A DNA stretch of 64,000 nucleotides. Origin: a virus (taxonomy: Duplodnaviria > Heunggongvirae > Uroviricota > Caudoviricetes). Within the stretch, counting starts at the first letter, position 1. Each line of letters opens with the position of its first letter. The notes beneath the pieces were generated by a model that saw nothing but the letters and a program-made list of their open reading frames with translations, was not told the DNA's origin and searched no databases. Positions 2-59,980 of the stretch are shown piece after piece. The position numbers were made by a program, and so were the translations under genes. The DNA lies in the IMG/VR virus record IMGVR_UViG_3300042946_001496, one strand, 5' to 3'.

Positions 2-175
2 GATAAATGCAAAGATTATTTTGATTTAGAAGAAATTTATTGGTGTCAAAACAAAGAATGCCAAGAGCAATACAGATGCACAAAATGTTGTTCTTTAGAT
101 GATATTTCCGCACAATGCCTTGAGCCAGCTTCAAAGTATTCAGAAAGTCATAAAGCCTCGATTTTAAAAAAATGA
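2..175 (+). CDS. Zn-ribbon LLDSF-family small protein, 5'-truncated by window edge
   Basis: In-frame Cys-rich C-terminal half (CxxC..CxxC..CC); its TGA overlaps the next ATG (ATGA). Confidence 0.4.
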   Translation, partial: DKCKDYFDLEEIYWCQNKECQEQYRCTKCCSLDDISAQCLEPASKYSESHKASILKK

Positions 176-387
176 GTCTACTTGATAGCTTTGATCGAAA
201 TAAAACTAAGTGTAAAAATTGCAAAAAGTATTTTGATGAACTCATTTTTGCTGACGAGGGTTACACCTATACTTTTTTTTATGATTGGTGTTTGGAATGT
301 CGCACAAGAGAAAATTCAAAAAAGATTTCTATTGTTTACAGAACAATAGGCGATATAATCAAAATCAATGAACAAAAATCTAATTGA
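172..387 (+). CDS. Zn-ribbon LLDSF-family small protein
   Basis: MSLLDSFDRNKTKCKNCKKYFD N-terminus with two CxxC pairs; first full copy of the tandem paralog array. Confidence 0.6.
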   Translation: MSLLDSFDRNKTKCKNCKKYFDELIFADEGYTYTFFYDWCLECRTRENSKKISIVYRTIGDIIKINEQKSN

Positions 388-541
388 CAGTTTTGATGAA
401 AACAAAGTAAAGTGTATAGAATGTAAAAAATATACAGAAAAAAACATGTATAATATCAAATATTGCAATGACTGTGTTAACAAAATCATGACAGAATGCT
501 TCGATAGATTAAAAATGCAACCCCCTTACAAATTTAAGTAA
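368..541 (+). CDS. Zn-ribbon LLDSF-family small protein
   Basis: MNKNLIDSFDENKVKCIECKKY; 57 aa so below the ORF-track cutoff; start overlaps the previous stop. Confidence 0.5.
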   Translation: MNKNLIDSFDENKVKCIECKKYTEKNMYNIKYCNDCVNKIMTECFDRLKMQPPYKFK

Positions 542-554
542 AAAAGGAAAAACA

Positions 555-1253
555 ATGAACATTTATCAAATTAGCAAAGATGTAAAATACTCAGATGAAG
601 TAGAGTTTGACTATAATGTCGTGCATGACTGCTCTGAACAAGGTTGTCATGATGAAGGAATATGCCGTTGTGGCAAGATAGAAGACATAGAAATCAAAAA
701 AGTCAATCGAACTGTTGTCGATAGTCTTGTCAAGAAGATCAAACTCAGGAAAAATGCAAAAGTCAAAGAGACGGAAGGGCAGTTCGTTTTAGAAGACGAA
801 CAGTTTTTCATGTATTGTGTTGACAGATTGTTTACAATTAACAAGCTTTACGATGGTGATGTTTGGAACATAGATGTGCGTGGAGGATATTATGGAGAAG
901 AAATTGACAACGTTTCTCCTCCGCTTTCTTTTTCAGATGACGTTACTAAAATAGCCAAATTAGATCCACAGCAAAGAATTAAATATGTTCTTACTAGAGA
1001 GTACGGTTACCTTCACGACAAACTAAAAGATAAATCTTTCGTAGAAAGAACAGTTTCTACAAAAGATTTAGTTGTTGGAAACGAATACAGAAAAACAGAC
1101 GGCAAACTTTATGAATGTTCAGAATACCATCTTCCAATAGGAATTTATCTGAAGGACGAAAATTCAGATAAGTATGTTCTTATGGATGGGTATAATAGAT
1201 TTTATGGAATTGTTCCAAACAATAAAACTGTTCAAATTATAAGTGCAGAATAG
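555..1253 (+). CDS. hypothetical protein (232 aa)
   Basis: Long ORF with AGGA-type RBS 8 nt upstream; CxC..CxxC cluster near the N-terminus. Confidence 0.55.
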   Translation: MNIYQISKDVKYSDEVEFDYNVVHDCSEQGCHDEGICRCGKIEDIEIKKVNRTVVDSLVKKIKLRKNAKVKETEGQFVLEDEQFFMYCVDRLFTINKLYDGDVWNIDVRGGYYGEEIDNVSPPLSFSDDVTKIAKLDPQQRIKYVLTREYGYLHDKLKDKSFVERTVSTKDLVVGNEYRKTDGKLYECSEYHLPIGIYLKDENSDKYVLMDGYNRFYGIVPNNKTVQIISAE

Positions 1254-1425
1254 ATGTAGATATTACATGAGAAAAGTAACATCAGATCCTTTATCGAATA
1301 GACAAAAAAGCAAACGAGCTGGACTAGGTTTAAGTTGGTGTCATGGATGCGATCGTAACCTTATAGGAGATGGAGAAAAGTGTAAAGTTTGCGGATATCA
1401 TCATAAACCTAAAAAAATTCGTTAA
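1243..1425 (+). CDS. small basic Cys-rich (zinc-ribbon-like) protein
   Basis: CHGCDRN...CKVCGYHH; overlaps the upstream gene by a few nt. Confidence 0.4.
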   Translation: MQNRCRYYMRKVTSDPLSNRQKSKRAGLGLSWCHGCDRNLIGDGEKCKVCGYHHKPKKIR

Positions 1426-1426
1426 A

Positions 1427-1645
1427 ATGACTAATTTGCACAAAAATCTCGATAGCTTTGATGAAAATAAAGTAAAATGTAGAGACTGTAAAAAATATAT
1501 TGAAAAAGATAGTGCTTCGCCTTTTGTTGATTTAGATAAAAATTTTAATGCTATAAAAGATTATTATCTATGTGGCATCTGTATTGGCGAAAGAATGAAA
1601 AATGGTGTACCAATCCAGCCGTTTGAGCCTCCATTTTTACAGTAA
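1427..1645 (+). CDS. Zn-ribbon LLDSF-family small protein
   Basis: Internal ATG gives MTNLHKNLDSFDENKVKCRDCKKY. Confidence 0.55.
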   Translation: MTNLHKNLDSFDENKVKCRDCKKYIEKDSASPFVDLDKNFNAIKDYYLCGICIGERMKNGVPIQPFEPPFLQ

Positions 1646-1648
1646 CTT

Positions 1649-1882
1649 ATGAATAATCTCGACAGTTTTGACGAAAATAAAAAGAAGTGTGTTTCTTGTC
1701 AAAAATATTTTAATAAAGAAGATTTTAGCACAGAAAAACATGCATTAACAGGAAGAACATTAGTGGCTACTGCTTGTCCATCTTGTGAAGCAAAATCTTG
1801 GGATGAGTTTTGTAAAAAAAATAAATTAAATCGACATCTGCGACCATATACTCCAAAAAAAATCAATAATGAGCAAGCTTGA
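1649..1882 (+). CDS. Zn-ribbon LLDSF-family small protein
   Basis: MNNLDSFDENKKKCVSCQKYFNK with a second CPSC pair. Confidence 0.6.
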   Translation: MNNLDSFDENKKKCVSCQKYFNKEDFSTEKHALTGRTLVATACPSCEAKSWDEFCKKNKLNRHLRPYTPKKINNEQA

Positions 1883-2066
1883 TAGTTTTGATAAAAGTAA
1901 AAAGAAGTGTCAATATTGTGGGAAATATTTTGACAAAAAAGAGCTTAAACGATCAGCATTCCACCAGACTTCACTTTGCCCTAGCTGCTGGAAAAGAGAA
2001 AATGATATGCTGGATAATATAGTTGGCAATGATGATGATTTCTTTAACGAGTATGAATATGAGTGA
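1869..2066 (+). CDS. Zn-ribbon LLDSF-family small protein
   Basis: MSKLDSFDKSKKKCQYCGKYFDK..CPSC; overlapping junction with the previous copy. Confidence 0.6.
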   Translation: MSKLDSFDKSKKKCQYCGKYFDKKELKRSAFHQTSLCPSCWKRENDMLDNIVGNDDDFFNEYEYE

Positions 2067-2232
2067 TCTAGACAGTTTTAATAACTGTAAAATTAAATGC
2101 AAATACTGTAAACATTATTTTGATGTAGCGATAATTAACAAAAACAATTTATGTGAAAAATGTCAAGAAAAAACAGATACAGAGTTCTTGGCTAGCATCA
2201 GGCATTTAATTGGTTTGCTGAAAAATGAATAA
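2059..2232 (+). CDS. Zn-ribbon LLDSF-family small protein
   Basis: MSDLDSFNNCKIKCKYCKHYFD..CEKC. Confidence 0.55.
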   Translation: MSDLDSFNNCKIKCKYCKHYFDVAIINKNNLCEKCQEKTDTEFLASIRHLIGLLKNE

Positions 2233-2428
2233 GCTAGATAGCTTTGATAACAGTAAAGTTAAATGCACTGGCTGTTCTACTTATTTAGACAAAAAAACAT
2301 TGGTTTTTAATGTATGTGATATTTGCCTTCAAAAGGAGCTTGTGTTATGCTTCGCTCCGCTAGTTGAAAATTTAGAAAAAGATTTCTCGGGATTGCCCTA
2401 CCTGTCCGAAGGAAAAAAATGTGAGTGA
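2225..2428 (+). CDS. Zn-ribbon LLDSF-family small protein
   Basis: MNKLDSFDNSKVKCTGCSTYLDK..CDIC. Confidence 0.6.
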   Translation: MNKLDSFDNSKVKCTGCSTYLDKKTLVFNVCDICLQKELVLCFAPLVENLEKDFSGLPYLSEGKKCE

Positions 2429-2633
2429 AGATAACCTCTTGAATAGTTTCAAAGTTTGTTATTGTCCTGATTGTTTTCCTCAAAAAATAATATTACAAAA
2501 AAGCAAACCTGACTCTATGTATCTTGAAGACCGTAAGTGGCATCGAGCCATAGAAAACGACTATATCTATGAGTGTCCAGGGTGTAAATTTCTGTTTCAC
2601 AAAAATGATGCATTAGAATATTCTAATGAGTAA
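2421..2633 (+). CDS. Zn-ribbon LLDSF-family small protein (divergent)
   Basis: MSEDNLLNSFKVCYCPDCF...CPGC. Confidence 0.5.
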   Translation: MSEDNLLNSFKVCYCPDCFPQKIILQKSKPDSMYLEDRKWHRAIENDYIYECPGCKFLFHKNDALEYSNE

Positions 2634-2755
2634 ATTTAACAAAAGTCTATTAGATAATATCCCATCTTTTTTTTTGCAATGAGACAGGAAAAGTTTATTC
2701 ATGTTCATGTTGCCTAACGTATTTTAGCGAAAAATTTCTTATTGAGAGGCAAAAA

Positions 2756-3034
2756 ATGAGCAATCTTGAAAGTTTTGATGAAAGTAAAAAAAAGTGTCAT
2801 GGTTGCAAAAAATACTTTGAGGAATCATCTATTGTTGGTCTTAACGGACAATACTTATGCACACCTTGTTTAAAAGAATCTCGGGTAGCTGTTCAGCAAT
2901 TCATCGATAAAAATTATTTCAGTAAGGAAACCAGCAATTTGAATCAAGCCATGGATGAATTTTTGACATTTATGGAAAAATATGTTGAAATTCAAAAGAA
3001 TTTAATAGAAGATTTTAAAAATGAGCAAACTTGA
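2756..3034 (+). CDS. Zn-ribbon LLDSF-family small protein
   Basis: MSNLESFDESKKKCHGCKKYFEE..CTPC; C-terminus KNEQT overlaps the next start. Confidence 0.6.
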   Translation: MSNLESFDESKKKCHGCKKYFEESSIVGLNGQYLCTPCLKESRVAVQQFIDKNYFSKETSNLNQAMDEFLTFMEKYVEIQKNLIEDFKNEQT

Positions 3035-3194
3035 CAGCTTTGATTACAATAAAAAGAAGTGCCCAAATTGTAAAAATTATTTTTACAAGAAGGAAAAATT
3101 TAAATATTTTATTGATTTCTTTAATAATAAGCGTTATTTTTGTCGAAAGTGCTGGCATGGTTTTGGAGTCTCTTTAATGAAACCATTTAAATAA
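3021..3194 (+). CDS. Zn-ribbon LLDSF-family small protein
   Basis: MSKLDSFDYNKKKCPNCKNYF..CRKC; 57 aa, not in the ORF track. Confidence 0.5.
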   Translation: MSKLDSFDYNKKKCPNCKNYFYKKEKFKYFIDFFNNKRYFCRKCWHGFGVSLMKPFK

Positions 3195-3406
3195 TGAACA
3201 ATCTTGATAGTTTCGACAATAATAAGATTAAATGTAAAGTGTGTGGCAAGTATTTTGATAAAGAAAGTATCTTTTATGATCTATCTAAGTATTGTGAAAA
3301 ATGCTGGCAAGACGTAGGCTTTGACAAAAGCGTCTCAGTGTTTAGACAAAGCGGAAAGTGTATGTTAAGCTGGAACATTCTGAATGCAAAAAATGAGCAA
3401 ACTTGA
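3194..3406 (+). CDS. Zn-ribbon LLDSF-family small protein
   Basis: MNNLDSFDNNKIKCKVCGKYFDK..CEKC. Confidence 0.6.
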   Translation: MNNLDSFDNNKIKCKVCGKYFDKESIFYDLSKYCEKCWQDVGFDKSVSVFRQSGKCMLSWNILNAKNEQT

Positions 3407-3566
3407 TAGTTTCGACAACAATAAAACTAAGTGTAAAAATTGCAAAAAGTATTTTGATAAAGAAAAATTTAAATATTTCGCTCTTTGTGTAAATTGTTGG
3501 GATAGTTTTGTGCGAAATCCGTCCACGTTCCTACAGAACTATTATGATGAAAAACAAAAAATTTAA
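3384..3566 (+). CDS. Zn-ribbon LLDSF-family small protein
   Basis: MSKLDSFDNNKTKCKNCKKYFDK..CVNC. Confidence 0.6.
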   Translation: MQKMSKLDSFDNNKTKCKNCKKYFDKEKFKYFALCVNCWDSFVRNPSTFLQNYYDEKQKI

Positions 3567-27478: not shown

Positions 27479-27862
27479 ATGCGTTCTTTGATTGCTTTGA
27501 TGGTTTTGTTGATGGGTGTGTTTGGTGGACAAGTTCATGGTGCGTTGAAGATCATGAAGACTCCCGTTCCGGCAATTACCCATGTAAGCCCATCAACGAA
27601 GGGGAATATTACTATCTGGCGTGGGTGGATTACAATTCTATTTCCAGATGGACGAAAGGTATCGGGTTATGCTGATTGGAGGGGCTATCCAGACAGTGTT
27701 CCGTTGTGGGATTCTTACACCAATATCTATTCAGGGTCTGGCATGAGTTGGCATCTCCTCTCTGATAAGGAGAGGAGAGGGATTGCTGTAATCCTTGTCG
27801 AGATTGATTTGGGATACGGAAATGGACCCTACAAGCCAGGTTCTAGTTCTACTGGACTTTGA
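27479..27862 (+). CDS. secreted small protein (signal peptide), GC-richer codons
   Basis: MRSLIALMVLLMGVFGGQVHGA signal peptide; terminator follows. Confidence 0.55.
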   Translation: MRSLIALMVLLMGVFGGQVHGALKIMKTPVPAITHVSPSTKGNITIWRGWITILFPDGRKVSGYADWRGYPDSVPLWDSYTNIYSGSGMSWHLLSDKERRGIAVILVEIDLGYGNGPYKPGSSSTGL

Positions 27863-27883
27863 TCCAGTAGTTAGTTAAGATAA

Positions 27884-27920
27884 AGGGAGGTTAGCCTAAA
27901 TGGCTAACCTCCCTTTTTTT
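27884..27920 (+). terminator. rho-independent terminator
   Basis: agggaggttagcc..ggctaacctccct hairpin followed by a T7 run. Confidence 0.8.
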
Positions 27921-27932: not shown

Positions 27933-28232
27933 TCAGTTAAGTTTAGCTTTAATGCACATTGGGTCAATTAAAACTTTATCTCTCTCGGTTCCATCATAGT
28001 TTGGAACAGGAGTAACCATGCCTGAAATTAACACTCTATCTCCGACAGCAAATCCATAGGTATCACTAACCAAGGGTCCAATTCCAACTACTATTCCTTG
28101 AAACTCTCTCATTGTTTTTGAGTTTTCACTAACAATAAGTTTTGTTCCAAGCATTTCTTGAGGAGTAAGCATTTCAAGCAATACTTGGTTTCCACAAGGT
28201 GTGCACTTTTTTACAGGGTCTAATTTAGTCAT
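27933..28232 (-). CDS. groES: GroES-like co-chaperonin (Cpn10)
   Basis: AGGAGA RBS; aligns to E. coli GroES blocks: GIVVGIGPL~GEVLAVGNG, FAVGDRVLISG~VKVGDIVIFND, DGTERDKVLIDPMCIKA~DNEEVLIMSESDILA; 99 aa. Confidence 0.65.
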   Translation of the reverse strand: MTKLDPVKKCTPCGNQVLLEMLTPQEMLGTKLIVSENSKTMREFQGIVVGIGPLVSDTYGFAVGDRVLISGMVTPVPNYDGTERDKVLIDPMCIKAKLN

Positions 28233-28318: not shown

Positions 28319-28687
28319 ATGTTAAAAAAATTAACAATAGAAAATTTTGACAATTTTGTCAAAAAAACAAGAAGAATAGCATTTGAAACGCCTTTTAAAC
28401 TTGCTAAAAAACTAAAACTAGCAAAATTAGCAACTGAGGAAGACATAGAGCAAATTATATCTTTTAAAGAAGTAAAATTATTAATACTTGACCAATATTC
28501 AAAAGAATATAATGATGAATATGTAATAATTGACAATGACTATGAAAACTGTTCACAGATACTAGAAAGTGTGATTAGTAGATTGGTTAATAATGAACTA
28601 AACAAAATGGCAAGTGACGGGGAACTTGAGTGTTATTTTGATAACGAAATTAATGATTTTCGCTTTCAAATGAAAAAAGATAATTAA
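28319..28687 (+). CDS. hypothetical protein
   Basis: ORF. Confidence 0.45.
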   Translation: MLKKLTIENFDNFVKKTRRIAFETPFKLAKKLKLAKLATEEDIEQIISFKEVKLLILDQYSKEYNDEYVIIDNDYENCSQILESVISRLVNNELNKMASDGELECYFDNEINDFRFQMKKDN

Positions 28688-29574
28688 TGGGATATAAAAT
28701 ACTTCGTAGAGTTGATAATAAAAATTATATTTGGAGACCATCAACAGATGTATATAAAATATACTTTGATGGAGTAACTCCAACTCCAGATTGTCCTGCT
28801 CCTTGGATGAGAATTCTTTTAAGCAATGGAGAAAAAATTCCTGCTGGTGATCTTAAGGTTGGAATGAAGGTTAGAACTTTTCATGAAAAAACAATGGAGC
28901 ATGGTGATTATGAAGTATCTTATGTAAAGATTTTACAAAGTAATAGACTGTCTTTAAAGTTTGATCATGTAGATTTTATTTGTTCTGAAAGTCATAAATT
29001 CTTTATAAACAATGATTGGATAAAAGCAAAAGATTTAATAATAGGAAGTGTTATTAGTGGGCACAAATTGGAATCTATTTCTGATTATGATTATGGAGAA
29101 ATAGTAAAAATAACAGTAGATGAAGCACACACTTATGTTTGTGAAGATTTATTCAGCCATAATAAAGAACCACCCCCACCAACACCAACGGCTACAATAC
29201 CACCAACACCAACGGCTACAATACCACCAACACCAACGGCTACAATACCACCAACACCAACGGCTACAATACCACCAACATCGACACCTACATCGACACC
29301 TACGCCAACGCCTACAGCTACTGTGATTTGCGGTACTAGTCGATGGCTTTGCATTAATGGAAGTCCACCCAGCGTGGTAGAATACTGTGATCCTGAAAGT
29401 GGAGCGGCTTGCTATGTATCTTATGATTCGAACAATGTTCCTATTGGTTTTGATACATGTGCTGATTGCGTATCTAATAGTCCTGGACCGGGTAATGTTT
29501 GTGGTCCTAATGAGGATCCTGGTGCTAATGAAAATGATCCATATTATGTGTTTTTCCCATGCGTTCCAAGATAA
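28687..29574 (+). CDS. Hint (intein-like) domain protein with Pro/Thr tandem-repeat linker and Cys-rich C-terminal domain
   Basis: Hint-like blocks IPAGDLKVGMKVRTF and GEIVKITVDEAHTYVCEDLFSHN; 4.5 copies of PPTPTATI; 12-Cys C-terminal domain. Confidence 0.55.
   Translation: MGYKILRRVDNKNYIWRPSTDVYKIYFDGVTPTPDCPAPWMRILLSNGEKIPAGDLKVGMKVRTFHEKTMEHGDYEVSYVKILQSNRLSLKFDHVDFICSESHKFFINNDWIKAKDLIIGSVISGHKLESISDYDYGEIVKITVDEAHTYVCEDLFSHNKEPPPPTPTATIPPTPTATIPPTPTATIPPTPTATIPPTSTPTSTPTPTPTATVICGTSRWLCINGSPPSVVEYCDPESGAACYVSYDSNNVPIGFDTCADCVSNSPGPGNVCGPNEDPGANENDPYYVFFPCVPR
29165..29283 (+). repeat. 24-nt tandem repeat (ccaccaacaccaacggctacaata) x about 4.5 inside the CDS
   Basis: Perfect copies are visible in the sequence. 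Confidence 0.9.
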
Positions 29575-29771
29575 AACATAATTAAAATTAAAAACAATAA
29601 ATAATAATAACACGGAGGTTATTATTATGGATATAATTACAATTATTTATGATTTAATACTTTGGCATAAAAAAAATAAAATTCATGCCAATAAAAAACA
29701 AAAAGAAATATTTGAGATAAAAGAATATAAACTTAAAAAGATAATTAATTTAATAAAAAGCGAACAATATC

Positions 29772-29815
29772 ACTAAAATAACAAGAGCCCTGGTGATTGT
29801 TTTCACCAGGGCTCT
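29772..29815. terminator. bidirectional intrinsic terminator between convergent genes
   Basis: caagagccctggtga..tcaccagggctcttg hairpin with U-rich tracts on both sides. Confidence 0.75.
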
Positions 29816-29824
29816 TGTTTTCTT

Positions 29825-30217
29825 TCACCAAGGAACATCTTTGATATCACCACCTGCTAATGCGGGTGTTTCATTCTCAGAAACTTCCTCTTCGCTATCT
29901 TCTCTTCTAACAGGATTTAACCTTAACTCTAATTCATTAACACCAACAAAATGTTTTTGACGCTTCTTGCCAGTGTCTTTATCTTCCCATTCATTTTCCA
30001 ACAATCTTCCGGTGATAAAGACTTTTTTGCCACGCTTTAGGTAATCTACTGCACGGGTAGGATTCCACCATTCGCAGTCTATGTAGGTGGTTCGTTTTTC
30101 TCCGTTACTGACGCACAGGCGGAACTTTGCCAGTACGCTGTCTCCTATTGGCTTTGTGACGCAATCCCCGGCTAGATTTCCCTCTAGGCATAGGTTGTTA
30201 ATGTCTCTTGACTTCAT
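29825..30217 (-). CDS. ssb: single-stranded DNA-binding protein
   Basis: OB-fold blocks YLKRGKKVFITGRLLENEWEDKDTGKKRQKHFVGVN match E. coli SSB [34 protein letters not shown]; acidic C-terminal tail DIKDVPW resembles DDDIPF; AAGGAG RBS. Confidence 0.85.
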   Translation of the reverse strand: MKSRDINNLCLEGNLAGDCVTKPIGDSVLAKFRLCVSNGEKRTTYIDCEWWNPTRAVDYLKRGKKVFITGRLLENEWEDKDTGKKRQKHFVGVNELELRLNPVRREDSEEEVSENETPALAGGDIKDVPW

Positions 30218-30872: not shown

Positions 30873-31322
30873 ATGAAAACATTCAATAAATGGCTAGAAA
30901 ATTTATCACAAGGCTGGGAGCTTTTTCACGGATCAAATAGCGAAGAGTTTGTTGGTCAAATTAGAGCTAACGAGCGTGATAGTGGTTGGTTTGGTTCCGG
31001 GTTTTATCTTAGTGCAATACCATCTTATGCTAAACGATGGGGTAAAAATGTGCACAAAATGATTGTTCCTTTCGGAAAATTTGCAAAGATTCAAGTAATT
31101 GGAAATTATAAAGAAATATTATTTGGAGACGCTGAATTTGCTAATCAAGAAGCTGGAGGGCAGGAAGCGTTTAATGATAATGAACATCTTTGGTCTAAAA
31201 AATTCACCGAAGCACTAAAAAAACAAGGATATGATGGAGTTAGAGTTGATTTTGATGAACATAAAGACGTAGAAGTAGTAATCTTTGATCCTTCAAAAAT
31301 ACAAGTGCTTGGAAAAATTTAA
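30873..31322 (+). CDS. hypothetical protein with MKTFNKWL leader; possible ADP-ribosyltransferase-like fold (weak)
   Basis: LFHGSN..GSGFYLS..E pattern is only suggestive. Confidence 0.45.
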   Translation: MKTFNKWLENLSQGWELFHGSNSEEFVGQIRANERDSGWFGSGFYLSAIPSYAKRWGKNVHKMIVPFGKFAKIQVIGNYKEILFGDAEFANQEAGGQEAFNDNEHLWSKKFTEALKKQGYDGVRVDFDEHKDVEVVIFDPSKIQVLGKI

Positions 31323-41381: not shown

Positions 41382-41471
41382 AAAGTCTGTCAAAGGACTT
41401 GATTTCTGTTTGGCTTGTTGTTATACTCAACCTGTGTCATGTTTGTGTGGCACTTATTTAAGGAGAATTGT

Positions 41472-41765
41472 ATGAAGAGTGTAATGTTTGCATGGATGGT
41501 TCTGATTGCTGGTGTTTGTTATGGTGGTCAGGAGGCTAGCGTTGTTGTTAGCCCAACTCCTGCTCCTGCTGTAGTTGTTGCTCCTGCTCCTGTTGTTGTG
41601 ACCGCAACCCCTGTTGTTGTTGGTTGTAATGGCGGTTGTTGCAGTGGTAAGTGCGACCCTGTTTACACCACAAAGACTGATGAGCGATCCAGTTGCCGTC
41701 GTACAGTTTTTGGCAAGGTAGTTCGCCGTGATGTTAGGCGAACTGTTGTTGCCCCTGTTCGCTGA
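41472..41765 (+). CDS. secreted small Pro/Val/Ala- and Cys-rich protein
   Basis: AAGGAG RBS; signal peptide MKSVMFAWMVLIAGVCYG; PAPAVVVAPAPVVV; CNGGCCSGKC; GC-rich codons; terminator follows. Confidence 0.55.
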   Translation: MKSVMFAWMVLIAGVCYGGQEASVVVSPTPAPAVVVAPAPVVVTATPVVVGCNGGCCSGKCDPVYTTKTDERSSCRRTVFGKVVRRDVRRTVVAPVR

Positions 41766-52317: not shown

Positions 52318-53046
52318 ATGGAATATAAAAATATTTTTAGACACAGAGGGCAGTCTTACGATCTAGCCATGAGGAACTATCCTGATGCTAGAAACGAAGA
52401 ATTTTATCAACTATTTGATAGATATCCAATTAAAAACAAAGAGACCATATTAGACATACCATCTCTTGGCGGGTATTTAAAAAAATATTGTCCAGAAGAC
52501 AGTACTGTATTATCATTAGATTTTTCTGAATCTATTAATAGTATAGCGGTAGTATCTCCTTATGAAAAATGGCCAACCCCCAAACTTGATAGAATAGTAT
52601 GCCTTGCATCAATTCATCATGTGCAAAAATTAGATTTATTTTTAGATAATATTGCATTGCACACGAAAGACAAAGGATTAATTCATTTAGCAGATGTCTC
52701 ACTTGGTAGTAATATTTCGTTTTTTTTAGACGAATTCGTTGGTAAGTACACCTCAACAGGTGAACACAAAGGACTTTACTATGATTGGAATGTGGTTAAA
52801 TTTCCCAAAGACTTGTCTATATTAAATATTTCCGACATATCGTGTCCTTGGATATTTAATTCAAAAAACGACATGATCAATTATTCTAGACTATTGTTTG
52901 ATTTACAGAATATTACTGATGGTGAGATATTGAGTGGATTAGAAAAATATATAGGGTACAAAAAAGAGGCTAATAGTTCTGTGTTTTTGAATTGGCATTT
53001 AACATATATTGATCTTGAGTATAATTTAAATGAAAAACCTACTTGA
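52318..53046 (+). CDS. hypothetical protein (possible Rossmann-like fold; weak)
   Basis: ORF; its C-terminus NEKPT-stop overlaps an LLDSF-family start. Confidence 0.5.
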   Translation: MEYKNIFRHRGQSYDLAMRNYPDARNEEFYQLFDRYPIKNKETILDIPSLGGYLKKYCPEDSTVLSLDFSESINSIAVVSPYEKWPTPKLDRIVCLASIHHVQKLDLFLDNIALHTKDKGLIHLADVSLGSNISFFLDEFVGKYTSTGEHKGLYYDWNVVKFPKDLSILNISDISCPWIFNSKNDMINYSRLLFDLQNITDGEILSGLEKYIGYKKEANSSVFLNWHLTYIDLEYNLNEKPT

Positions 53047-53101
53047 TAGTTTTGTAGACTTAAAATGTCCATGGTGTCCTTCTGTTAAGCTAGAACGTTG
53101 A
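53030..53101 (+). pseudogene. truncated Zn-ribbon LLDSF-family remnant (23 aa)
   Basis: MKNLLDSFVDLKCPWCPSVKLER-stop. Confidence 0.3.
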
Positions 53102-53150
53102 AATATATGTATAGTAGAATTATTGCTAATGATCAATATATAAAGTTATT

Positions 53151-54416
53151 ATGAACTTTTATGAATTCTACAATCTAGTCGCTGAAAACGTTGAAGAAAA
53201 TTTTGACAAATGGCTAGATGCTTTGATTAAGTATGCAAAAAAAGATGAATTAGTATTCAGCGGCTGGTTCGATGTGCGTGCATTTAATCGAGTTGTTATC
53301 ATAAATGTTCTTAAAGAGCAAAATCTTGAAAACTTTAATTGGTTTAGTTTCTGTATTGGTTACTATGCTGTCAAACCAGCGTTTAGAAAAGAAGACTTAG
53401 AGATGGCAATAACTGCAACCAAAAAAGCTGTTGATAGTGGCGAGTTGCCTAAAGCTGAGATAGGAGTCAAGGGTTGGTTTAAAATTGGCTTCGAAGCACC
53501 TGAAAGAGTAAGAAAATATCTTGCAGGTCAAAATCAATTAAGTAACAGAGAAGCTTTAAAAAGAAAAAAGCTTGGTCAAGCAGAATTAGACCGTAAGTTT
53601 GTACAATTAATAGCAAGTGAAAAAGAATATAAAATATACTATTTGCCTAAAAATGCAATAGCTTATGCTGACAATGAACTAAACGCAAATATTGAAGACA
53701 TAAAACAAAGACACCAAATATTATGCAAGTTAGGAAAAGATACCGAGTGGTGTACCGCTCAACCTAGTTGGGATGCTCACGAAAGCTACATCAATGATGA
53801 TATTTACATTATTCATCAAATAATAAATATGGATGAAATTCCAATTTATCAATTTACAGATTGTGGAAATCCTAATGAACAGTTTATGGACAATGAAAAT
53901 AATGATGTTGAATATTTGCCTGGAAAGGTTTTCAATATTTTAAAAATACACTTACCAGAAATAATAAGTTGTTATGGTTTAAAAAAAGAATTAGAAGGTG
54001 TTGAAGACTTCTTAAATAGAGAGCTTAAAGATTTAGACGGAATTAAAATAAAAGAAATGGATAAATTGCTCTTATCTTTATTCAAAAAGAAAGACATTAA
54101 TAAAATAAAAGATGTAATGAACAAACTTATTGAATACATAGACAATAAAATAAATTTTATTAAATGGTCAAGCCGGGCGATGAGGTTAACACCAAGCTAC
54201 ACCAAAATTTTAAACTTTACATACATAATTGTTAAAGAAATCGCTCAGCTATCAAGAGAGTCGGGAATCGTTTTCAATATGCCGCAAGCTGAAAAGTTAA
54301 AAGATTTGTTGAAAACAATGGTTGATCTAGACAAAGCTGTAACACACCACTGGCAGAATAAAGATCTTTATAGAAATGTTGACTCACTATTAGCAAAAGA
54401 AACTGGTGAAGATTGA
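53151..54416 (+). CDS. PcfJ-like domain protein with MNFYEFY leader
   Basis: LGKDTEWCTAQPSWDAHESYINDDIYIIHQI core. Confidence 0.5.
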   Translation: MNFYEFYNLVAENVEENFDKWLDALIKYAKKDELVFSGWFDVRAFNRVVIINVLKEQNLENFNWFSFCIGYYAVKPAFRKEDLEMAITATKKAVDSGELPKAEIGVKGWFKIGFEAPERVRKYLAGQNQLSNREALKRKKLGQAELDRKFVQLIASEKEYKIYYLPKNAIAYADNELNANIEDIKQRHQILCKLGKDTEWCTAQPSWDAHESYINDDIYIIHQIINMDEIPIYQFTDCGNPNEQFMDNENNDVEYLPGKVFNILKIHLPEIISCYGLKKELEGVEDFLNRELKDLDGIKIKEMDKLLLSLFKKKDINKIKDVMNKLIEYIDNKINFIKWSSRAMRLTPSYTKILNFTYIIVKEIAQLSRESGIVFNMPQAEKLKDLLKTMVDLDKAVTHHWQNKDLYRNVDSLLAKETGED

Positions 54417-54594
54417 TTAAAAAATTATTTGACTTCTTTAAGAAAAAAGTAGGAGCAAGCGGTAAACTAGTTATTACTGTGACGCCTTCTCCAGACAACA
54501 GGAAGAAAAAACAAGAAGAGCAAAATAAAAAATCACTTCCAACGAGACGACCTTTAAGTGGATAATAAAATCAAAAATTCTGCATAAATAATTC

Positions 54595-54735
54595 ATGTCG
54601 CTTAATTTTTATAAATTACATTTGTTGATAAACGAGTACGGTGAAAAAACAATAGAAGCTCTTGTTCAAAAGTTTAAAAAAGAAGAGCCTGGTCTTACTG
54701 ATCAGATAATAAGATCATTGTACTCGTTGTCTTGA
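54595..54735 (+). CDS. leader-only small ORF (46 aa)
   Basis: MSLNFYKLHLLINEYGEK resembles the MNFHKLYQLINEN / MNFYKL leaders of the large proteins. Confidence 0.35.
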   Translation: MSLNFYKLHLLINEYGEKTIEALVQKFKKEEPGLTDQIIRSLYSLS

Positions 54736-54787
54736 AGGATTTAACCCAAATAATCCTAAAATCAAAAAACCAAATTAAAAAATCTGC

Positions 54788-54815
54788 TCTAGTGGTACGC
54801 TGGGTTTCTGGAGAG
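54788..54815 (+). promoter_or_regulatory. conserved GTGGTACGCTGGG promoter-like motif
   Basis: tctagtggtacgctgggtttctggagag. Confidence 0.5.
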
Positions 54816-54848
54816 AGACTCTGGTTTGAGTTCTTTTAAGGAACAACA

Positions 54849-55031
54849 ATGACTAATTCAGACGAACAAGTATTGATGGGATGTTTGTATGTAGTTTTTG
54901 CGTTGTTGGTTCCGATCATCGCAATTTCGTGCACCAACACTTTATTTGGTCTTCAAATTCAGCCTACTTGGTACAATTATTTGGCTATGGCAATTCTTTT
55001 GTTCATACTTAGAGTGCCGACTGGCAGATAA
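54849..55031 (+). CDS. small membrane protein
   Basis: Two TM helices; downstream of the motif. Confidence 0.45.
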   Translation: MTNSDEQVLMGCLYVVFALLVPIIAISCTNTLFGLQIQPTWYNYLAMAILLFILRVPTGR

Positions 55032-55239
55032 AATCTAGCTTCATTGCAGATTCTAAACACTATGATTTCATAAAACAGTGTAAAAACAAAATGAACAAAA
55101 AGTTCTACTTGAGTTGGGTGTGGAATCCTTTATTCTGGACTATCGAAAAAACCAGAAGATTCAACGGCGGCAATCCTTATGATTGTTATAGGTTTGGACC
55201 GCTCTTTTTAAGAGTATATCTTTAAAAGGAACCAATTTA

Positions 55240-55482
55240 ATGGGCGTTATGTCTTGTAGCCGATCTCAATGCTATAATATCATGTGTGACCTTTGCATTT
55301 ATGACATAGGTTACGTTTGCTCTGATTGTGAAGAAGAATTCAAGGCTGGGTATACTGGTGGTGAAGGTTTCGATGAAATTCGTGAATCGCTTAAGACTTT
55401 CATGGAATCGCCTAAAGTAAAGGTTTGCGTATCTTCAAGCAAAGAGGCTGTGGAAGATTTTTTTAATACTTATCGTTCTTAG
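55240..55482 (+). CDS. small Cys-rich protein
   Basis: MGVMSCSRSQCYNIMCDLCIYDIGYVCSDCEEEF. Confidence 0.5.
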   Translation: MGVMSCSRSQCYNIMCDLCIYDIGYVCSDCEEEFKAGYTGGEGFDEIRESLKTFMESPKVKVCVSSSKEAVEDFFNTYRS

Positions 55483-55489
55483 GAAAAAA

Positions 55490-55717
55490 ATGAAAGTCTC
55501 TGACCTTATTGAACTACTTAGTAATCTTGATCCAAACTCCAGGGTTATTGTACGAAACAAAACCGAGCCAGTAATTTGGGCTGAGGGCGAAGTTACTTGG
55601 TTTCAAGAACTTGCTGTGATCGGTGATGAAGATGAACTTGGATATAGTGTTAGTTGGTGGGAAGAAACCAAACTGTTTAAGGATCTTCTTGAAGGAGAAA
55701 CAAATGAAAATGGATGA
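55490..55717 (+). CDS. hypothetical protein
   Basis: ORF. Confidence 0.45.
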   Translation: MKVSDLIELLSNLDPNSRVIVRNKTEPVIWAEGEVTWFQELAVIGDEDELGYSVSWWEETKLFKDLLEGETNENG

Positions 55718-55907
55718 CTTTAATAAAGTTGATCGGCTGAATATCAAGTTGCTATCAGGTAAAGAGTATATTGGTATGCACTGTATTCGCAATTTCACCA
55801 ATCCTGAAAGCAAAAGACTAACTTTCTTTAATCCAAAAGAAGGTTCCATCATGTCAATTAATTGGAAACTAATTGAGCATGTTTACTTTTATGAAAATGA
55901 AGATTGA
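55704..55907 (+). CDS. hypothetical protein
   Basis: AAGGAG RBS upstream of an internal ATG. Confidence 0.4.
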   Translation: MKMDDFNKVDRLNIKLLSGKEYIGMHCIRNFTNPESKRLTFFNPKEGSIMSINWKLIEHVYFYENED

Positions 55908-55914
55908 TAAAATC

Positions 55915-55941
55915 TCTGTTCGGTGGTACGCTGGTGCTAAG
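55915..55941 (+). promoter_or_regulatory. conserved GGTGGTACGCTGG promoter-like motif
   Basis: tctgttcggtggtacgctggtgctaag. Confidence 0.5.
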
Positions 55942-55973
55942 TTACAGTTTCATAACAAAAAATTGGATAAAAA

Positions 55974-56321
55974 ATGCCGCACCTTGAACGCTTTTACAAC
56001 ATCGGTCATTTGGTAAGCACTTTGCTGAAAAGTATTGAACTTCCGAACCAAAAGAATTACGATCTTCGTAATTTGACAGATGAACAAGCCACTCAAATTA
56101 TTCTTAAGGTGAAAGAATTTTTTGAGTCACGCTTTAATGATTGGTGTGATGGAACATACGATGTAATGAGATGTTGTTTTGTTGATGGTAGTTGTAGTTG
56201 GTTGCTTGACCCACCTACAGACCTCAATAACGATGAAGTTGAAAAACTGATTGATGATTGCTACGATAGCCTTGGTGAAAAAATTCTAAAGCAGAGAGGC
56301 GTGAATGAAAATCAGAATTAA
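55974..56321 (+). CDS. hypothetical protein
   Basis: Downstream of the motif. Confidence 0.5.
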   Translation: MPHLERFYNIGHLVSTLLKSIELPNQKNYDLRNLTDEQATQIILKVKEFFESRFNDWCDGTYDVMRCCFVDGSCSWLLDPPTDLNNDEVEKLIDDCYDSLGEKILKQRGVNENQN

Positions 56322-56649
56322 AGGAATTTCAGTTCCAATTGACGTTAATGATATTGAAGACCCTAATCTTTTGGGTGAATCGCTTAGGGATTTGTTTTTT
56401 GGTACTGAAAAGGGGCGTGGTTGTTATGAAAACTTTGAAGTAGAACCAGGTGTTGAGTATTTAGGTGAGGAACGAGATCCCACTGATTACACTGATCCTG
56501 AATACGCAGTTGTTTACAAAACCTATCAATTTGAAAACATCAAAATGATGTATTATTGGGATGGGGATGGAACTTTGATCTTTATTCTGGGTGATAGGAC
56601 TCTTATGAATAATGATTGCAAGAAAAACTACATTTGGGACTTTGTTTAA
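56305..56649 (+). CDS. hypothetical protein
   Basis: ORF; terminator follows. Confidence 0.5.
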   Translation: MKIRIKGISVPIDVNDIEDPNLLGESLRDLFFGTEKGRGCYENFEVEPGVEYLGEERDPTDYTDPEYAVVYKTYQFENIKMMYYWDGDGTLIFILGDRTLMNNDCKKNYIWDFV

Positions 56650-56673
56650 CACAATTATATAACTTAACGGAAA

Positions 56674-56713
56674 CTCAGGCAAGGACTAACTATCCTTGCC
56701 TGAGTTTTTTTGT
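56674..56713 (+). terminator. rho-independent terminator
   Basis: ctcaggcaagga..tccttgcctgag hairpin followed by a T8 run. Confidence 0.85.
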
Positions 56714-56728
56714 AATTAACACTAAAAA

Positions 56729-56956
56729 TTGACTAACATTAATTCTAAACTTAAAATGAATGAAACTAAAAAAGATCTACTTGACAAATTCGTTTCTTAC
56801 AATTGCCCATATTGTAAGAACATTTTAATCAAAGAGTCTAAAGAAAATTGGCGTACGTTTGATATTGAATCAGGTGAAGAAACTTTTTTTGGAGTTTATG
56901 GTTGCAAAAAGTGTGGATCTTACTTTAGTGGAAAAGTGTTATATGAATGCAAATAA
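56729..56956 (+). CDS. Zn-ribbon LLDSF-family small protein (array 2)
   Basis: KKDLLDKFVSYNCPYCKN...CKKCG; the start may be the internal Met at 56756. Confidence 0.5.
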   Translation: MTNINSKLKMNETKKDLLDKFVSYNCPYCKNILIKESKENWRTFDIESGEETFFGVYGCKKCGSYFSGKVLYECK

Positions 56957-57185
56957 AAAAAAATTGCTTGAAAGCTTTTTGGACCATAAATGTCCTTGGC
57001 ATAACAAAGAATTAGATGATAATAGTAAAATTTTATTTTGTAACGTTGTCGTAACAACTGGACAGTATTGTTGTGGAATTTGGGATAATCACAGAGTAAA
57101 CACTATTCTTGGCAGAATAAAGATTCAAGGATCTGCTTACAAAAGACTTTTAAAAATAAAAGAATACTATGAAAAACTCGCTTGA
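56943..57185 (+). CDS. Zn-ribbon LLDSF-family small protein
   Basis: MNANKKKLLESFLDHKCPWHN..; ends KEYYEKLA. Confidence 0.55.
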   Translation: MNANKKKLLESFLDHKCPWHNKELDDNSKILFCNVVVTTGQYCCGIWDNHRVNTILGRIKIQGSAYKRLLKIKEYYEKLA

Positions 57186-57402
57186 TAGTTTCACAAAACA
57201 TTTTTGCCCTAAATGTTATGAAGAAACTTATGCTCAGCTAAATCCTTCTAACGGAAATAAAATAAGGATTTGTTTGAATAATAATTGTGAAGATCTAGCC
57301 AGAGTTTACACAAAAAATTCAAACTCTCAAGTTTATGTTCACACTCATTCTGTCCCGCCCCATATTGTGCCAGAGCTAAAAAGATTGAAAGATGAACAAT
57401 AA
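57169..57402 (+). CDS. Zn-ribbon LLDSF-family small protein
   Basis: MKNSLDSFTKHFCPKCYE...CLNNNC. Confidence 0.55.
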   Translation: MKNSLDSFTKHFCPKCYEETYAQLNPSNGNKIRICLNNNCEDLARVYTKNSNSQVYVHTHSVPPHIVPELKRLKDEQ

Positions 57403-57712
57403 AAAATTGCTTGAGACTTTTGAAACAGTTTACTACTGTGGATTTTGTTCTGCGTCAATATTCCCGACAAAAACTATAGCAACATTAATTACTGATAAAG
57501 ATTTAATAAAAAAGTGTGACAAATACTGTGTTCCTTCATCAAAAGATTTAGAAAAGCTTCAAGAATCTTTTGATATTACTGAACAGCATGAAAGATTTTA
57601 TTGTAGTTTTTGTGGTAGTTATTCTGCGGTTAACTTGGAATCAAAAAGTATTCACTATATTACAAAGTCTTACAGTTTGTGGCGGTCGCTAAACGAAGGC
57701 TATGAAACATAA
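57392..57712 (+). CDS. Zn-ribbon LLDSF-family small protein
   Basis: MNNKKLLETFETVYYCGFCS...CSFCG. Confidence 0.55.
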   Translation: MNNKKLLETFETVYYCGFCSASIFPTKTIATLITDKDLIKKCDKYCVPSSKDLEKLQESFDITEQHERFYCSFCGSYSAVNLESKSIHYITKSYSLWRSLNEGYET

Positions 57713-57748
57713 ATTGCTTGAAAACTTTGTTAGTTGTTATTTATAAAA

Positions 57749-57850
57749 ATGAAGAAAAAATTACTTTCTAGTTTTTTAGAATACGAATGTCCTTGGCGTG
57801 ATGAGCCTGATAGAAAATGTACTAAAAAATTAAACATAATAAAGTCATGA
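57749..57850 (+). pseudogene. truncated Zn-ribbon LLDSF-family remnant (33 aa)
   Basis: MKKKLLSSFLEYECPWRDEPDRKC.. then a stop; an even shorter remnant MKHKLLENF lies at 57709. Confidence 0.3.
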
Positions 57851-57979
57851 ATTATATTAAAACTATAGGTGAAGAAAAGTTAGAAGAAATATTAGGCATG
57901 GATCGATCGTGGGATACACGCCCTGAATTTGAAAATTATAGTTTAGTTGATGATATTATCAAAAATTATATTGCGTAAT

Positions 57980-58210
57980 ATGAACAGAAAAAAACTGCTA
58001 AGTAGTTTTATTGAATACTGCTGTCCTTTTTCACACTGTGGTGAAAAACTAACCTTTTCAAAAGATATTTTTTATTGTAAAAAACATAAATCATGGGATC
58101 TTGATAATACTGTCTTTTTTTTACACCTTCATCCTAACCCCTCTTACTTAAATAGAGAAAGATTAATTAAACTAAAAGAATACTATGAGTCAGAAATTAG
58201 CTCGCCGTGA
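57980..58210 (+). CDS. Zn-ribbon LLDSF-family small protein
   Basis: MNRKKLLSSFIEYCCPFSHCGEK..; ends LKEYYESE. Confidence 0.5.
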   Translation: MNRKKLLSSFIEYCCPFSHCGEKLTFSKDIFYCKKHKSWDLDNTVFFLHLHPNPSYLNRERLIKLKEYYESEISSP

Positions 58211-58283
58211 GCGAGTAATAAGTAGGTCTAAATCTTATTGAAGAGCTTTTTTAAATTACTTATTTTCATTCATATATAAAAAC

Positions 58284-58928
58284 ATGGAATTCAAAAATTG
58301 GCTTATAGAACATGATTATTTAAAAGACCTTGATCCACTCTCACATGAAAAAGAAAACGATAGAGCAAACGCATTAAATAAATTTTTTCCTGACGGCGAT
58401 ACATATCCGCAAATTAATCTTGAAAACAAAAGAATTGTAATGAGTAAGTACAGGCAGCCGCCAATTGTTATACCATACAAAGGCACGCGGAGCGATAAAC
58501 CAAAAGGTGGATTGTGGTATGGAGAAGGCAATGAGTGGATTAGCTTTATACAATATAATATCCCAAATCTTATTGCCATGTTTGTTCATGAAATTTTTAT
58601 AAATCCATCAAGAATGTGTATAATTCATGATGAAAAAACATTAGAAGATTTTACTTGGAAATATCGTCTAGATGCCGAATCTGAAGTAATTGATTGGGAT
58701 AAAGTTGCTAGCGAATTTGATGGAATAGAGTGTTTTGGCAATGGATTCGATAAAGAAAATTGGCAATATAGTTGGGATGTTCCAAGCGGTTGTATTTGGA
58801 ACAACACAGCATTAAAAGATTCTAAATTGTTATCTGTCTACGATGTGCATAACAAAAAATTCAGAAAAGCAAACGAATTAGGCGTGTATGCAGGAAACGC
58901 AAGTAAAATAAAAAATCCAATTAGATAA
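58284..58928 (+). CDS. hypothetical protein with MEFKNWL leader
   Basis: ORF; interrupts the Zn-ribbon array. Confidence 0.5.
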   Translation: MEFKNWLIEHDYLKDLDPLSHEKENDRANALNKFFPDGDTYPQINLENKRIVMSKYRQPPIVIPYKGTRSDKPKGGLWYGEGNEWISFIQYNIPNLIAMFVHEIFINPSRMCIIHDEKTLEDFTWKYRLDAESEVIDWDKVASEFDGIECFGNGFDKENWQYSWDVPSGCIWNNTALKDSKLLSVYDVHNKKFRKANELGVYAGNASKIKNPIR

Positions 58929-58955
58929 AAGTAAGTATGAGCGATCGAAATCTAA

Positions 58956-59201
58956 ATGATAAAAAAATTATTAGACACTTTTGTTGAAGAAAAGATTTTT
59001 TGTCCATCTAGATGTTATACTTGGGCAGAAACTCGTGATCACACTGGTCATTATCCGACAAAAGACATTTTTTTAAAAAAGATTACCTATATTGATGGTG
59101 TAATAATTTACAAGTGTCCAGGATGTGGTGGTAAATATTCTAAAGAGTTTCTTATTGCTTATGAAATTCATCATGACATAAAGCTTTTTTTGAAACCTTA
59201 A
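58956..59201 (+). CDS. Zn-ribbon LLDSF-family small protein
   Basis: MIKKLLDTFVEEKIFCPSRC...CPGCGG. Confidence 0.55.
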   Translation: MIKKLLDTFVEEKIFCPSRCYTWAETRDHTGHYPTKDIFLKKITYIDGVIIYKCPGCGGKYSKEFLIAYEIHHDIKLFLKP

Positions 59202-59202
59202 A

Positions 59203-59538
59203 ATGAACAAACTGCTTGATAGATTTTTAGGCTTAAAGTGTCCTACCTGTGGCAAGTCTCTAGAACTAAAAACTAAAAAAGAAATTTTACTTTTTACTGC
59301 ACTGTCACCGCCCGTTTACTCTTATCTTGAAAAATTAAACTTAGAAGATAAAGTGCCTGTTTGTTTAGATCACAAAAATAAGAGCGGAAAAGAAATTGGT
59401 ATGTGGGTTTGGACACCATTTTCTACATATGCTATTGAAAAAATGCATAAACAATGTCCATCTGGTTGGGTGCTTCATCCTAACGGAATTGAACCTTTAA
59501 ACAAACTAAAAGAATACTTCAATGAACAAACTGCTTGA
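59203..59538 (+). CDS. Zn-ribbon LLDSF-family small protein
   Basis: MNKLLDRFLGLKCPTCGKS...; ends LKEYFNEQTA. Confidence 0.55.
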   Translation: MNKLLDRFLGLKCPTCGKSLELKTKKEILLFTALSPPVYSYLEKLNLEDKVPVCLDHKNKSGKEIGMWVWTPFSTYAIEKMHKQCPSGWVLHPNGIEPLNKLKEYFNEQTA

Positions 59539-59641
59539 TAGATTTTTAGATTTAAAGTGTCCTACCTGTGGCAAGTCTCTAGAACTAAAAACTAAAAAAG
59601 AAATTTTACTTTTTTTGTTCCACCTAATATTACCGGGTCGC
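59522..59641 (+). pseudogene. truncated duplicate of the 59203 gene (first about 100 nt nearly identical), reading into inserted DNA
   Basis: MNKLLDRFLDLKCPTCGKSLELKTKKEILLF then unrelated sequence and a stop. Confidence 0.45.
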
Positions 59642-59708
59642 TAAGATGGCTAACAGAAAGCTAATTTTATGGATTACTATTCATATTGAAAAGAAGTGAA
59701 GATAACAA

Positions 59709-59933
59709 ATGATTCAAGTTTATTGTGACAATCCATTAAATGCCTCATTAGAATTTGTGAAGGGGCTGCCTTCTATGAGATCGTGCCGTCTTTGGTCACG
59801 GCGGGAGTATCCAGTCGTATCTGTTAAAGTGTTTATTTCCAACAATTTTAATTTCGTCAACAAAAAAGAAGCTCAGCTACATGAAGTGTCCGATGTTGTA
59901 ATTCAGTTCAATTTGATAGAGACCTGTCATTAA
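59709..59933 (+). CDS. hypothetical protein inside the inserted segment
   Basis: ORF; GC-richer DNA. Confidence 0.3.
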   Translation: MIQVYCDNPLNASLEFVKGLPSMRSCRLWSRREYPVVSVKVFISNNFNFVNKKEAQLHEVSDVVIQFNLIETCH

Positions 59934-59980
59934 CTTGATGTGCCCGAATTTTTTGCTATACTTAGATAAGGAGAAAAATA

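Follow-up and report, generated by a model that had tools for sequence, protein, structure and literature searches.

The 64,000-nucleotide window analysed here (IMG/VR record IMGVR_UViG_3300042946_001496, a Caudoviricetes virus) carries at 28687–29574 (+) one ATG-to-TAA reading frame without interruption, whose product of 295 amino acids (aa), hereafter the Hint protein, combines a short N-terminal flank, a predicted Hint domain, a Pro/Thr repeat linker and a Cys-rich C-terminal module (Table 1). We consider it probable that this product is a small modular phage protein and a small-sized representative of a Hint clade restricted to viruses, and we favour, with somewhat better than even confidence, the reading that the Hint domain would autocatalytically cleave, and possibly also ligate, the modules on its two sides. 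The identical protein is encoded on at least six metagenome contigs from several samples, and two DNA copies of the locus differ by 0 and 1 (synonymous) nucleotides.

The predicted Hint fold and its catalytic residues

The Hint assignment was made because the homologues, the profile of the family and the modelled structure all support it. A search with residues 1–161 retrieved four homologous proteins, the core profile search yielded 38 proteins, and a scan of IMG/VR gave 50 loci. Searched alone, the window protein matched the KlbA intein 2jmz at a sub-threshold level (E = 0.16), and no match to PF07591 PT-HINT (gathering score 27.7 bits) was reported for it at E ≤ 10; the related protein P0001 scored 25.1 bits against this family, and P0004 (37.7 bits), L017 (36.6 bits) and L036 (36.3 bits) all exceeded the gathering score. 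When residues 30–168 were modelled by AlphaFold2 on a 27-sequence alignment, the model reached a pLDDT of 91.9 and a pTM of 0.84, and its top Foldseek matches in the PDB were exclusively Hint domains, among them the Ssp DnaB mini-intein (E = 3.2e-9, TM 0.80), Tetrahymena BUBL BIL2 (TM 0.81) and the bacterial intein-like domain (BIL) of C. thermocellum (TM 0.81). Indeed, the family profile matched 20 Hint chains among the PDB sequences at E ≤ 0.01, the best being the DnaX mini-intein (2.3e-9), with BIL2 at 7.8e-9 and the C. thermocellum BIL at 1.5e-8. On the modelled structure, the core C36–N159 is a Hint fold. A first-pass annotation of this sequence had already proposed a Hint domain from the Hint-like strings IPAGDLKVGMKVRTF (residues 51–65) and GEIVKITVDEAHTYVCEDLFSHN (residues 137–159) and had suggested a profile comparison with Hint families; the fold match, the comparison with Hint structures and the homologues above the PT-HINT gathering score bear out the domain itself, and its extent is revised, from about 160 N-terminal Hint residues to a 35-aa non-Hint flank followed by the 124-aa core.

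The residue alignments between the family profile and the PDB chains place intein block B (TxxH) onto C99-S100-E-S102-H103 and blocks F and G onto AHTYVCEDLFSHN. T64-x-H66 was also considered as block B and was rejected, since the alignments to DnaX and BIL2 put this block at S100-x-x-H103; judged from its sequence, T-x-H-E is an additional family-specific motif, distinct from block B. Among 43 distinct complete units, which are 124–134 aa in size, lack a homing endonuclease domain and share a mean pairwise identity of 48% (minimum 34%), S100, H103, E67 and three Gly occur in all 43, T64 in 42 and H66 in 40. Cys1 and the terminal His-Asn are found in every member of the HMMER-derived alignment A4 that reaches those positions, and H148 is likewise conserved there wherever the sequence extends far enough; C1, H148 and H158-N159 belonged to the extraction pattern of the 43 units, where their invariance is partly circular. 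Cys1, one His each in blocks B and F, and the terminal His-Asn are present, which points to an intact catalytic residue set.

The C-terminal junction and comparison with known Hint systems

The residue that directly follows the terminal Asn (+1) sets this clade apart from classical inteins. At 77 non-redundant C-terminal junctions it is Lys in 72, Arg in two, Leu-Lys in two and Phe-Lys in one, and Cys, Ser or Thr in none (0/77), with the consensus SHN/K-[ST]-P, where the slash marks the junction. Type-A BILs are defined by a C-terminal His-Asn, the lack of a +1 nucleophile and mostly cleavage products, and their splicing is possible when the freed amine of the C-flank attacks the N-terminal thioester (PMC4031507). 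With Cys1, the terminal His-Asn and a +1 Lys, the window domain fits this definition, and the earlier description of it as BIL-like rather than a true intein stands. We would place it outside the described bacterial BIL-A set, because of its viral or metagenomic distribution and the absence of a signal peptide.

One of the closest known counterparts is the type-A BIL of C. thermocellum (PDB 2lwy), which shares the N-terminal Cys, the block B His, the C-terminal His-Asn and the absence of Cys, Ser or Thr at +1, sits like the phage module in variable, non-essential protein regions and not in conserved enzyme motifs, and has the same expected chemistry, namely cleavage at both termini and, to a minor extent, ligation by aminolysis. 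The two differ in that identity is 19% and the phage clade is viral whereas the BIL is bacterial, and in that the phage units nearly always have Lys at +1, read S-x-x-H instead of T-x-x-H in block B, carry the extra T-x-H-E, and occur in baseplate or host-recognition proteins and in tandem arrays. PT-HINT domains (PF07591; Rhs, CdiA, MafB) resemble the phage clade in lying between a conserved N-part and a variable C-part, whereas the phage clade has no toxin or immunity domains and no secretion signal, was not found in cellular genomes, and often has as its C-part a conserved structural half-protein or a few residues. Classical mini-inteins (Ssp/Npu DnaB, gp41-1, DnaX) are alike in fold, in size and in having all four splicing blocks, but they have Cys, Ser or Thr at +1 and occupy conserved sites of essential enzymes, in contrast to the Lys and the linkers of the phage module. 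The self-cleaving C-terminal chaperones of the Peptidase_S74 type in tail fibres and spikes are likewise self-removing domains of phage host-recognition proteins, of an unrelated fold and with a Ser-Lys dyad protease instead of Hint thioester formation and Asn cyclisation; no sequence or structure match was seen, although no search aimed at one was made.

Distribution of the clade and its host proteins

Flanks were defined by extending the reading frames around 49 IMG/VR matches. As a result, the module proved to be mostly internal to large proteins, with N-flanks of ~200–1,790 aa and C-flanks of ~100–2,000 aa, and in nearly all relatives Pro-rich linkers lie on both sides of the Hint. Some proteins (L011, L015, L046) contain two or three Hint units: residues ~690–1167 of L011 and L015 hold three Hints joined by short Pro-rich linkers, the units of L011 ending at aa 813, 1015 and 1162, and L046 has two. 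The first unit of L011 also matches Hom_end_hint and Intein_splicing.

Many of the Hint-bearing host proteins carry DUF4815 / PHROG_358 (VrlC), and the gene order around the relatives (gp8-like, DUF4815 protein, gp13, gp14, gp15, terminase) is that of T4-like phages. In pelagi- and cyanomyophages VrlC is built into the double-layered baseplate as an integral component, and the interval from vrlC to gp14 is the host recognition cluster, a hypervariable region that includes tail fibres, collagen repeats and Mtd domains (PMC7029224; PMC12379486). Neither of these two papers mentions a Hint domain, and we found no literature combining 'Hint domain' with cyanophage, pelagiphage, myophage or baseplate. 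In L004, a 1,217-aa collagen-repeat protein is encoded directly upstream, and the close relatives P0004 and P0014 begin with an Mtd_N fibre domain.

The VrlC proteins also occur without the module. The Hint-deleted L034 protein (2,758 aa) aligns to single open reading frames (ORFs) of cultured Kyanoviridae, in phage DSL-LC03 in one unbroken piece, and the matching cyanophage ORFs are labelled 'VrlC protein', 'structural protein' or 'DUF4815 domain-containing'. In a multiple alignment, the Hint-less VrlC alleles are without the entire linker-Hint-Lys-linker segment, and the Hint site corresponds to a hypervariable hinge that is flanked by the conserved halves ...ETLQ..IISVKN... and ...DPLAQSF.V... 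Presence/absence polymorphism of the Hint is thus seen for VrlC; for the window gene, no allele lacking the Hint was found. The remark in the first-pass annotation that the domain has no extein context therefore holds for the window gene and not for the relatives, which carry the module inside VrlC, a protein with known Hint-less alleles.

Two motif-based scans of 185,579 species-representative cellular genomes gave 0 matches to the clade. It was not found in cultured phages either, save for one 27% tblastn match of the Hint core in an unannotated contig, and the locus has no DNA similarity to cultured phages. With members on viral or metagenomic contigs only, the clade appears to be virus-restricted; it is apparently undescribed, with its conserved +1 Lys and its predicted tie to proteins of the baseplate and of host recognition in aquatic T4-like myophages.

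Several further features of the relatives were recorded. Several seemingly stand-alone members of 127–160 aa are truncated gene calls from the internal Met of CPAPWMKILL, and we therefore make no claim that Hint proteins often stand free. An example is L003 (7534–8537), where the called gene P0021 begins at the internal Met, and Cys1 with ~70 in-frame residues lies upstream, overlapping a further ORF call. The VrlC-like protein, fused in L034, appears on this long-read ('pilon') contig to be split into several ORFs, possibly by frameshift errors or by real fragmentation. L006 (4501–6864, +) shows after residue 625 the junction SHN/KYTTGGGGG, followed by CVALESFVPL..., a candidate second, different Hint-like domain. 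P0004–P0010 and P0016 have short C-flanks (17–61 aa) that all end in ...(V/I)(S/T)W-COOH, and DUF4214 repeats (PF13946) are found in the C-flank after the Hint in L049–L053 and L036.

Proposed processing and alternative explanations

The processing that we favour follows established Hint chemistry. Cys36 would undergo an N-to-S acyl shift at the D35–C36 bond to form a thioester, and Asn159, helped by H158 and H148, would cyclise with cutting of the N159–K160 bond. The outcome would be mainly cleavage, into an N-flank of 4.2 kDa, the Hint of 14.3 kDa and the linker/Cys-module of 14.0 kDa; in a fraction of the molecules, the freed Lys160 amine may attack the thioester, so that the flanks would be ligated (18.2 kDa), as in type-A BILs. 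Products cut on one side only would have 18.45 kDa (N-flank with Hint) or 28.2 kDa (Hint with C-flank). The relatives further suggest that the reaction serves to separate or re-join a constant part and a fast-evolving, probably host-interacting C-part, and it is only from them that a virion or host-recognition role may be extended to the window protein. The first-pass suggestion of a secreted or surface protein fares differently in its two halves. The Hint protein has neither a signal peptide nor a transmembrane segment (maximum 15-residue Kyte–Doolittle hydropathy 1.07), and the sequence does not support 'secreted'; 'surface' is plausible if it is taken to mean no more than a protein of the virion or of host recognition, as the relatives suggest, whereas its own locus is non-structural.

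Hint chemistry underlies inteins, Hedgehog processing and many protein-engineering tools, and a compact 124-aa, virus-specific clade with a conserved +1 Lys could yield a ligation or cleavage tool whose junction requires no Cys, Ser or Thr. In very abundant aquatic myophages, a self-processing module placed where the conserved parts of baseplate and host-recognition proteins meet the hypervariable ones would suggest that the host-recognition apparatus is built or diversified through a post-translational step that has gone unrecognised. For the Hint chemistry of the clade, the window gene would offer a simple 295-aa model.

A number of observations weigh against this reading. The window protein alone lies below every Pfam threshold (Intein_splicing, E = 0.063), the Asp position of block F is D or E in only 36 of the 43 units, and the conservation statistics come partly from motif-seeded loci and so carry an ascertainment bias. 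There are no structural genes in the 64 kb, the window locus does not lie in a structural module, and the virion role is extrapolated from relatives with only 40–56% identity in the Hint. Furthermore, simple cleavage accounts neither for the near-invariant +1 Lys nor for the extra T-x-H-E motif, and the tandem arrays of two or three Hints on short linkers fit it poorly. Finally, the C-flanks of P0015, P0017 and P0027 are merely 1–3 aa, and release of a C-module therefore cannot be a universal role.

One alternative, which we consider unlikely, assigns the +1 Lys the part of acceptor nucleophile in a 'lysine splicing': the Cys1 thioester would be attacked by the epsilon-amine of this Lys or, once Asn has cyclised, by its alpha-amine. 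A chemical precedent is given by BUBL BIL2 of Tetrahymena thermophila (PDB 6tmm / 6y75), in which the N-flank is transferred to a lysine epsilon-amine and an isopeptide is formed. This domain is eukaryotic, has ubiquitin-like flanks and shares 13% identity with the phage Hint; its +1 residue in the crystallised construct is Met, and the Lys that accepts the N-flank is found at another place in the substrate. If true, lysine splicing would be a new mechanistic class of protein-ligating Hint, joining the N-flank to the C-flank by an amide or isopeptide bond without Cys, Ser or Thr; alternatively, baseplate or host-recognition modules would be covalently cross-linked to one another, at several points in the tandem arrays. 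Since a lysine-ligating BIL is already known in BUBL BIL2, the novelty would lie in the conserved cis +1 Lys in virion proteins.

To a similarly low degree we credit a polymorphic-toxin-like effector, in which the Hint, as in bacterial pretoxin-HINT proteins (Rhs, CdiA, MafB), would stand where a constant carrier meets an exchangeable C-terminal cargo and would free the disulfide-rich 8-Cys peptide as a toxin, a bacteriocin-like peptide or a host-manipulating effector, with ORF49, the small ORF downstream, as immunity protein or partner. PT-HINT is indeed the best Pfam family for the homologues, hypervariable C-flanks follow a nearly invariant junction, divergence rises toward the C-module, and ORF49, with its strong ribosome-binding site, lies inside the same terminator-bounded unit. 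However, the protein carries neither a signal peptide nor a known trafficking domain, and searches of Pfam, PHROGs, NCBIfam and PADLOC gave no match to a toxin or immunity family. The idea that ORF49 is a conserved partner of the immunity type was rejected, as a homologue was found beside none of the relatives, and in many relatives the 'cargo' consists of the conserved C-terminal half of a baseplate protein or of just 1–3 residues. The clade is also not found in cellular genomes, the home of polymorphic toxins.

Less likely still would be a functionless or purely structural insertion without processing, be it an intein-like selfish element in decay or an inert spacer that flexible linkers can accommodate. 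The module always lies in Pro-rich linkers or in the hypervariable hinge and never in conserved host motifs, the Hint-less VrlC is evidently functional in cultured phages, and the units, of 124–134 aa, have no homing endonuclease domain. Against this, the catalytic and several extra positions are invariant despite 34–48% identity and unrelated host proteins, which argues for purifying selection on the chemistry, and the +1 Lys, although outside the domain, is conserved too. We regard as very improbable a canonical class 1 intein, kept as a mobile element and spliced precisely to leave a mature 171-aa protein. In its favour, the domain has Cys1, blocks B and F and the terminal His-Asn, VrlC shows presence/absence polymorphism as a host gene, and many true mini-inteins are among the structural neighbours. 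Against it, Lys occupies 72 of 77 +1 positions and Cys, Ser or Thr none of them, so that class 1–3 splicing could not pass through its branched (thio)ester intermediate, the insertions are in non-conserved linkers, some C-flanks have just 1–3 aa, and there is no endonuclease domain.

The flanking modules of the Hint protein

The N-flank (residues 1–35) had no match in Pfam. A reduced Mtd_N fibre anchor was considered for it, which looked suggestive in a MAFFT alignment, and was rejected, as Pfam returned nothing and hhalign gave a probability of 1%.

The linker comprises 55 residues, of which 20 are Pro and 20 Thr. Tandem Repeats Finder reported a repeat of period 24 with 4.4 copies, 100% matches and a score of 210, the unit CCACCAACACCAACGGCTACAATA encoding PPTPTATI, in agreement with the perfect 24-nucleotide Pro/Thr repeat of the first-pass annotation. 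Its view of the repeat as a site of length variation, to be checked by copy number among relatives, also held: P0047, a member of the same 90% protein cluster, is 100% identical to the Hint protein apart from being shorter by exactly one 8-aa unit, and thus represents a natural 3.4-copy allele. The repeat is therefore polymorphic in nature, and this length polymorphism is real, though resting on a single assembled contig. An anchored DNA-pattern scan for repeat copy number, with the pattern checked on the window itself, gave 0 matches in metagenome_contigs and IMG/VR, neither of which contains this phage, and the copy number was then answered through the protein cluster.

The C-module contains eight Cys (positions 215, 222, 234, 242, 258, 261, 272 and 292) and the whole protein 11, which corrects the '12-Cys C-terminal domain' of the earlier annotation. 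All eight align with those of P0001, the sole orthologue (49% identity). A word-indexed search returned no C-module homologues, an exhaustive profile search of 1.84 billion representatives gave no convincing match besides P0001, and there was no match among PDB sequences. Three weak, multi-stretch matches in giant surface proteins with InlB-B repeats (Flg_new_2) were judged compositional. The full-length AlphaFold2 model (five sequences) had a pLDDT of 55 and was unusable for this module. By these searches the Cys-rich module is an orphan domain. Identity to the P0001 locus falls along the sequence, from 89% in the upstream gene through ~73% in the Hint to 49% in the C-module, a gradient that suggests a fast-evolving C-part.

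The window locus and its neighbours

The window is AT-rich (~32% GC), with nearly all genes on the plus strand and no tRNAs, and phage family matches are present among its genes. The Hint gene lies between ORF122 and ORF49 in a unit bounded by terminator-like hairpins (Table 1). ORF122 has no family match and still adjoins the Hint gene in the related contig L060, at 89% identity. Other neighbours include an AAA_28 kinase-like gene and an ART-PolyVal-like gene.

Table 1. Features of the Hint gene and of its surroundings in the window
Feature	Position	Strand	Remark
Complete ORF	28687..29574	+	295 aa + stop; precursor 32.4 kDa
N-flank, residues 1–35, C-terminal end TPTPD (linker-like)	28687..28791	+	79% identity to P0001
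Predicted Hint core, residues C36–N159	28792..29163	+	124 aa, mini-intein size
Cys1 (C36), codon TGT	28792–28794	+	
Block B, S100 and H103	28984–28986 and 28993–28995	+	
Block F, H148	29128–29130	+	
Block G, H158-N159	29158–29163	+	
Lys160 (AAA)	29164..29166	+	+1 residue directly after the predicted Asn-cyclisation cleavage site
Pro/Thr linker, residues 160–214	29164..29328	+	composition
Perfect 24-nucleotide tandem repeat, 4.4 copies	29176..29280	+	Tandem Repeats Finder
Cys-rich C-module, residues 215–295, 8 Cys	29329..29571	+	one orthologue, 49% identity
Terminator-like hairpin, 15-bp perfect stem and T-run	27882..27916	+	ends the preceding plus-strand gene; upstream neighbourhood boundary
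Cpn10/GroES-like gene	27933–28232	-	isolated minus-strand gene, just under the Pfam threshold; between the first hairpin and ORF122
ORF122	28319..28687	+	stop overlaps the Hint start codon (TAATG)
ORF49	29627..29776	+	strong GGAGGT ribosome-binding site
Bidirectional terminator-like hairpin, 17-bp perfect stem, T-runs	29780..29819	.	closes the ORF122-Hint-ORF49 unit, before the convergent SSB gene
SSB gene	29825–30217	-	isolated minus-strand gene flanking the Hint unit
149-aa ORF	30873–31322	+	ART-PolyVal ADP-ribosyltransferase, E = 1.6e-6, 29.4 vs 31.2 bits, sub-threshold

A defence or anti-defence role was considered and rejected, as PADLOC gave no match for the three operon genes (ORF122, Hint and ORF49); NCBIfam returned nothing meaningful. 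The 149-aa ORF downstream has weak matches to the PADLOC candidate systems PDC-M10A and PDC-M13.

Two further groups of small ORFs were observed in the window. The plus strand at 172–3566, 10211 and 53039–62290 encodes a large paralogous family of ~60–110 aa, in which an N-terminal motif resembling (K)LLDSF precedes zinc-ribbon-like CxxC / CPxC motifs; a regular expression counted 14 members on this strand, and more are visible by eye. The small ORFs at 27479–27862 (+) and 41439–41765 (+) have signal-peptide-like hydrophobic N-termini, followed in the latter by a Pro/Ala/Val-rich tract, and may encode secreted or envelope phage proteins.

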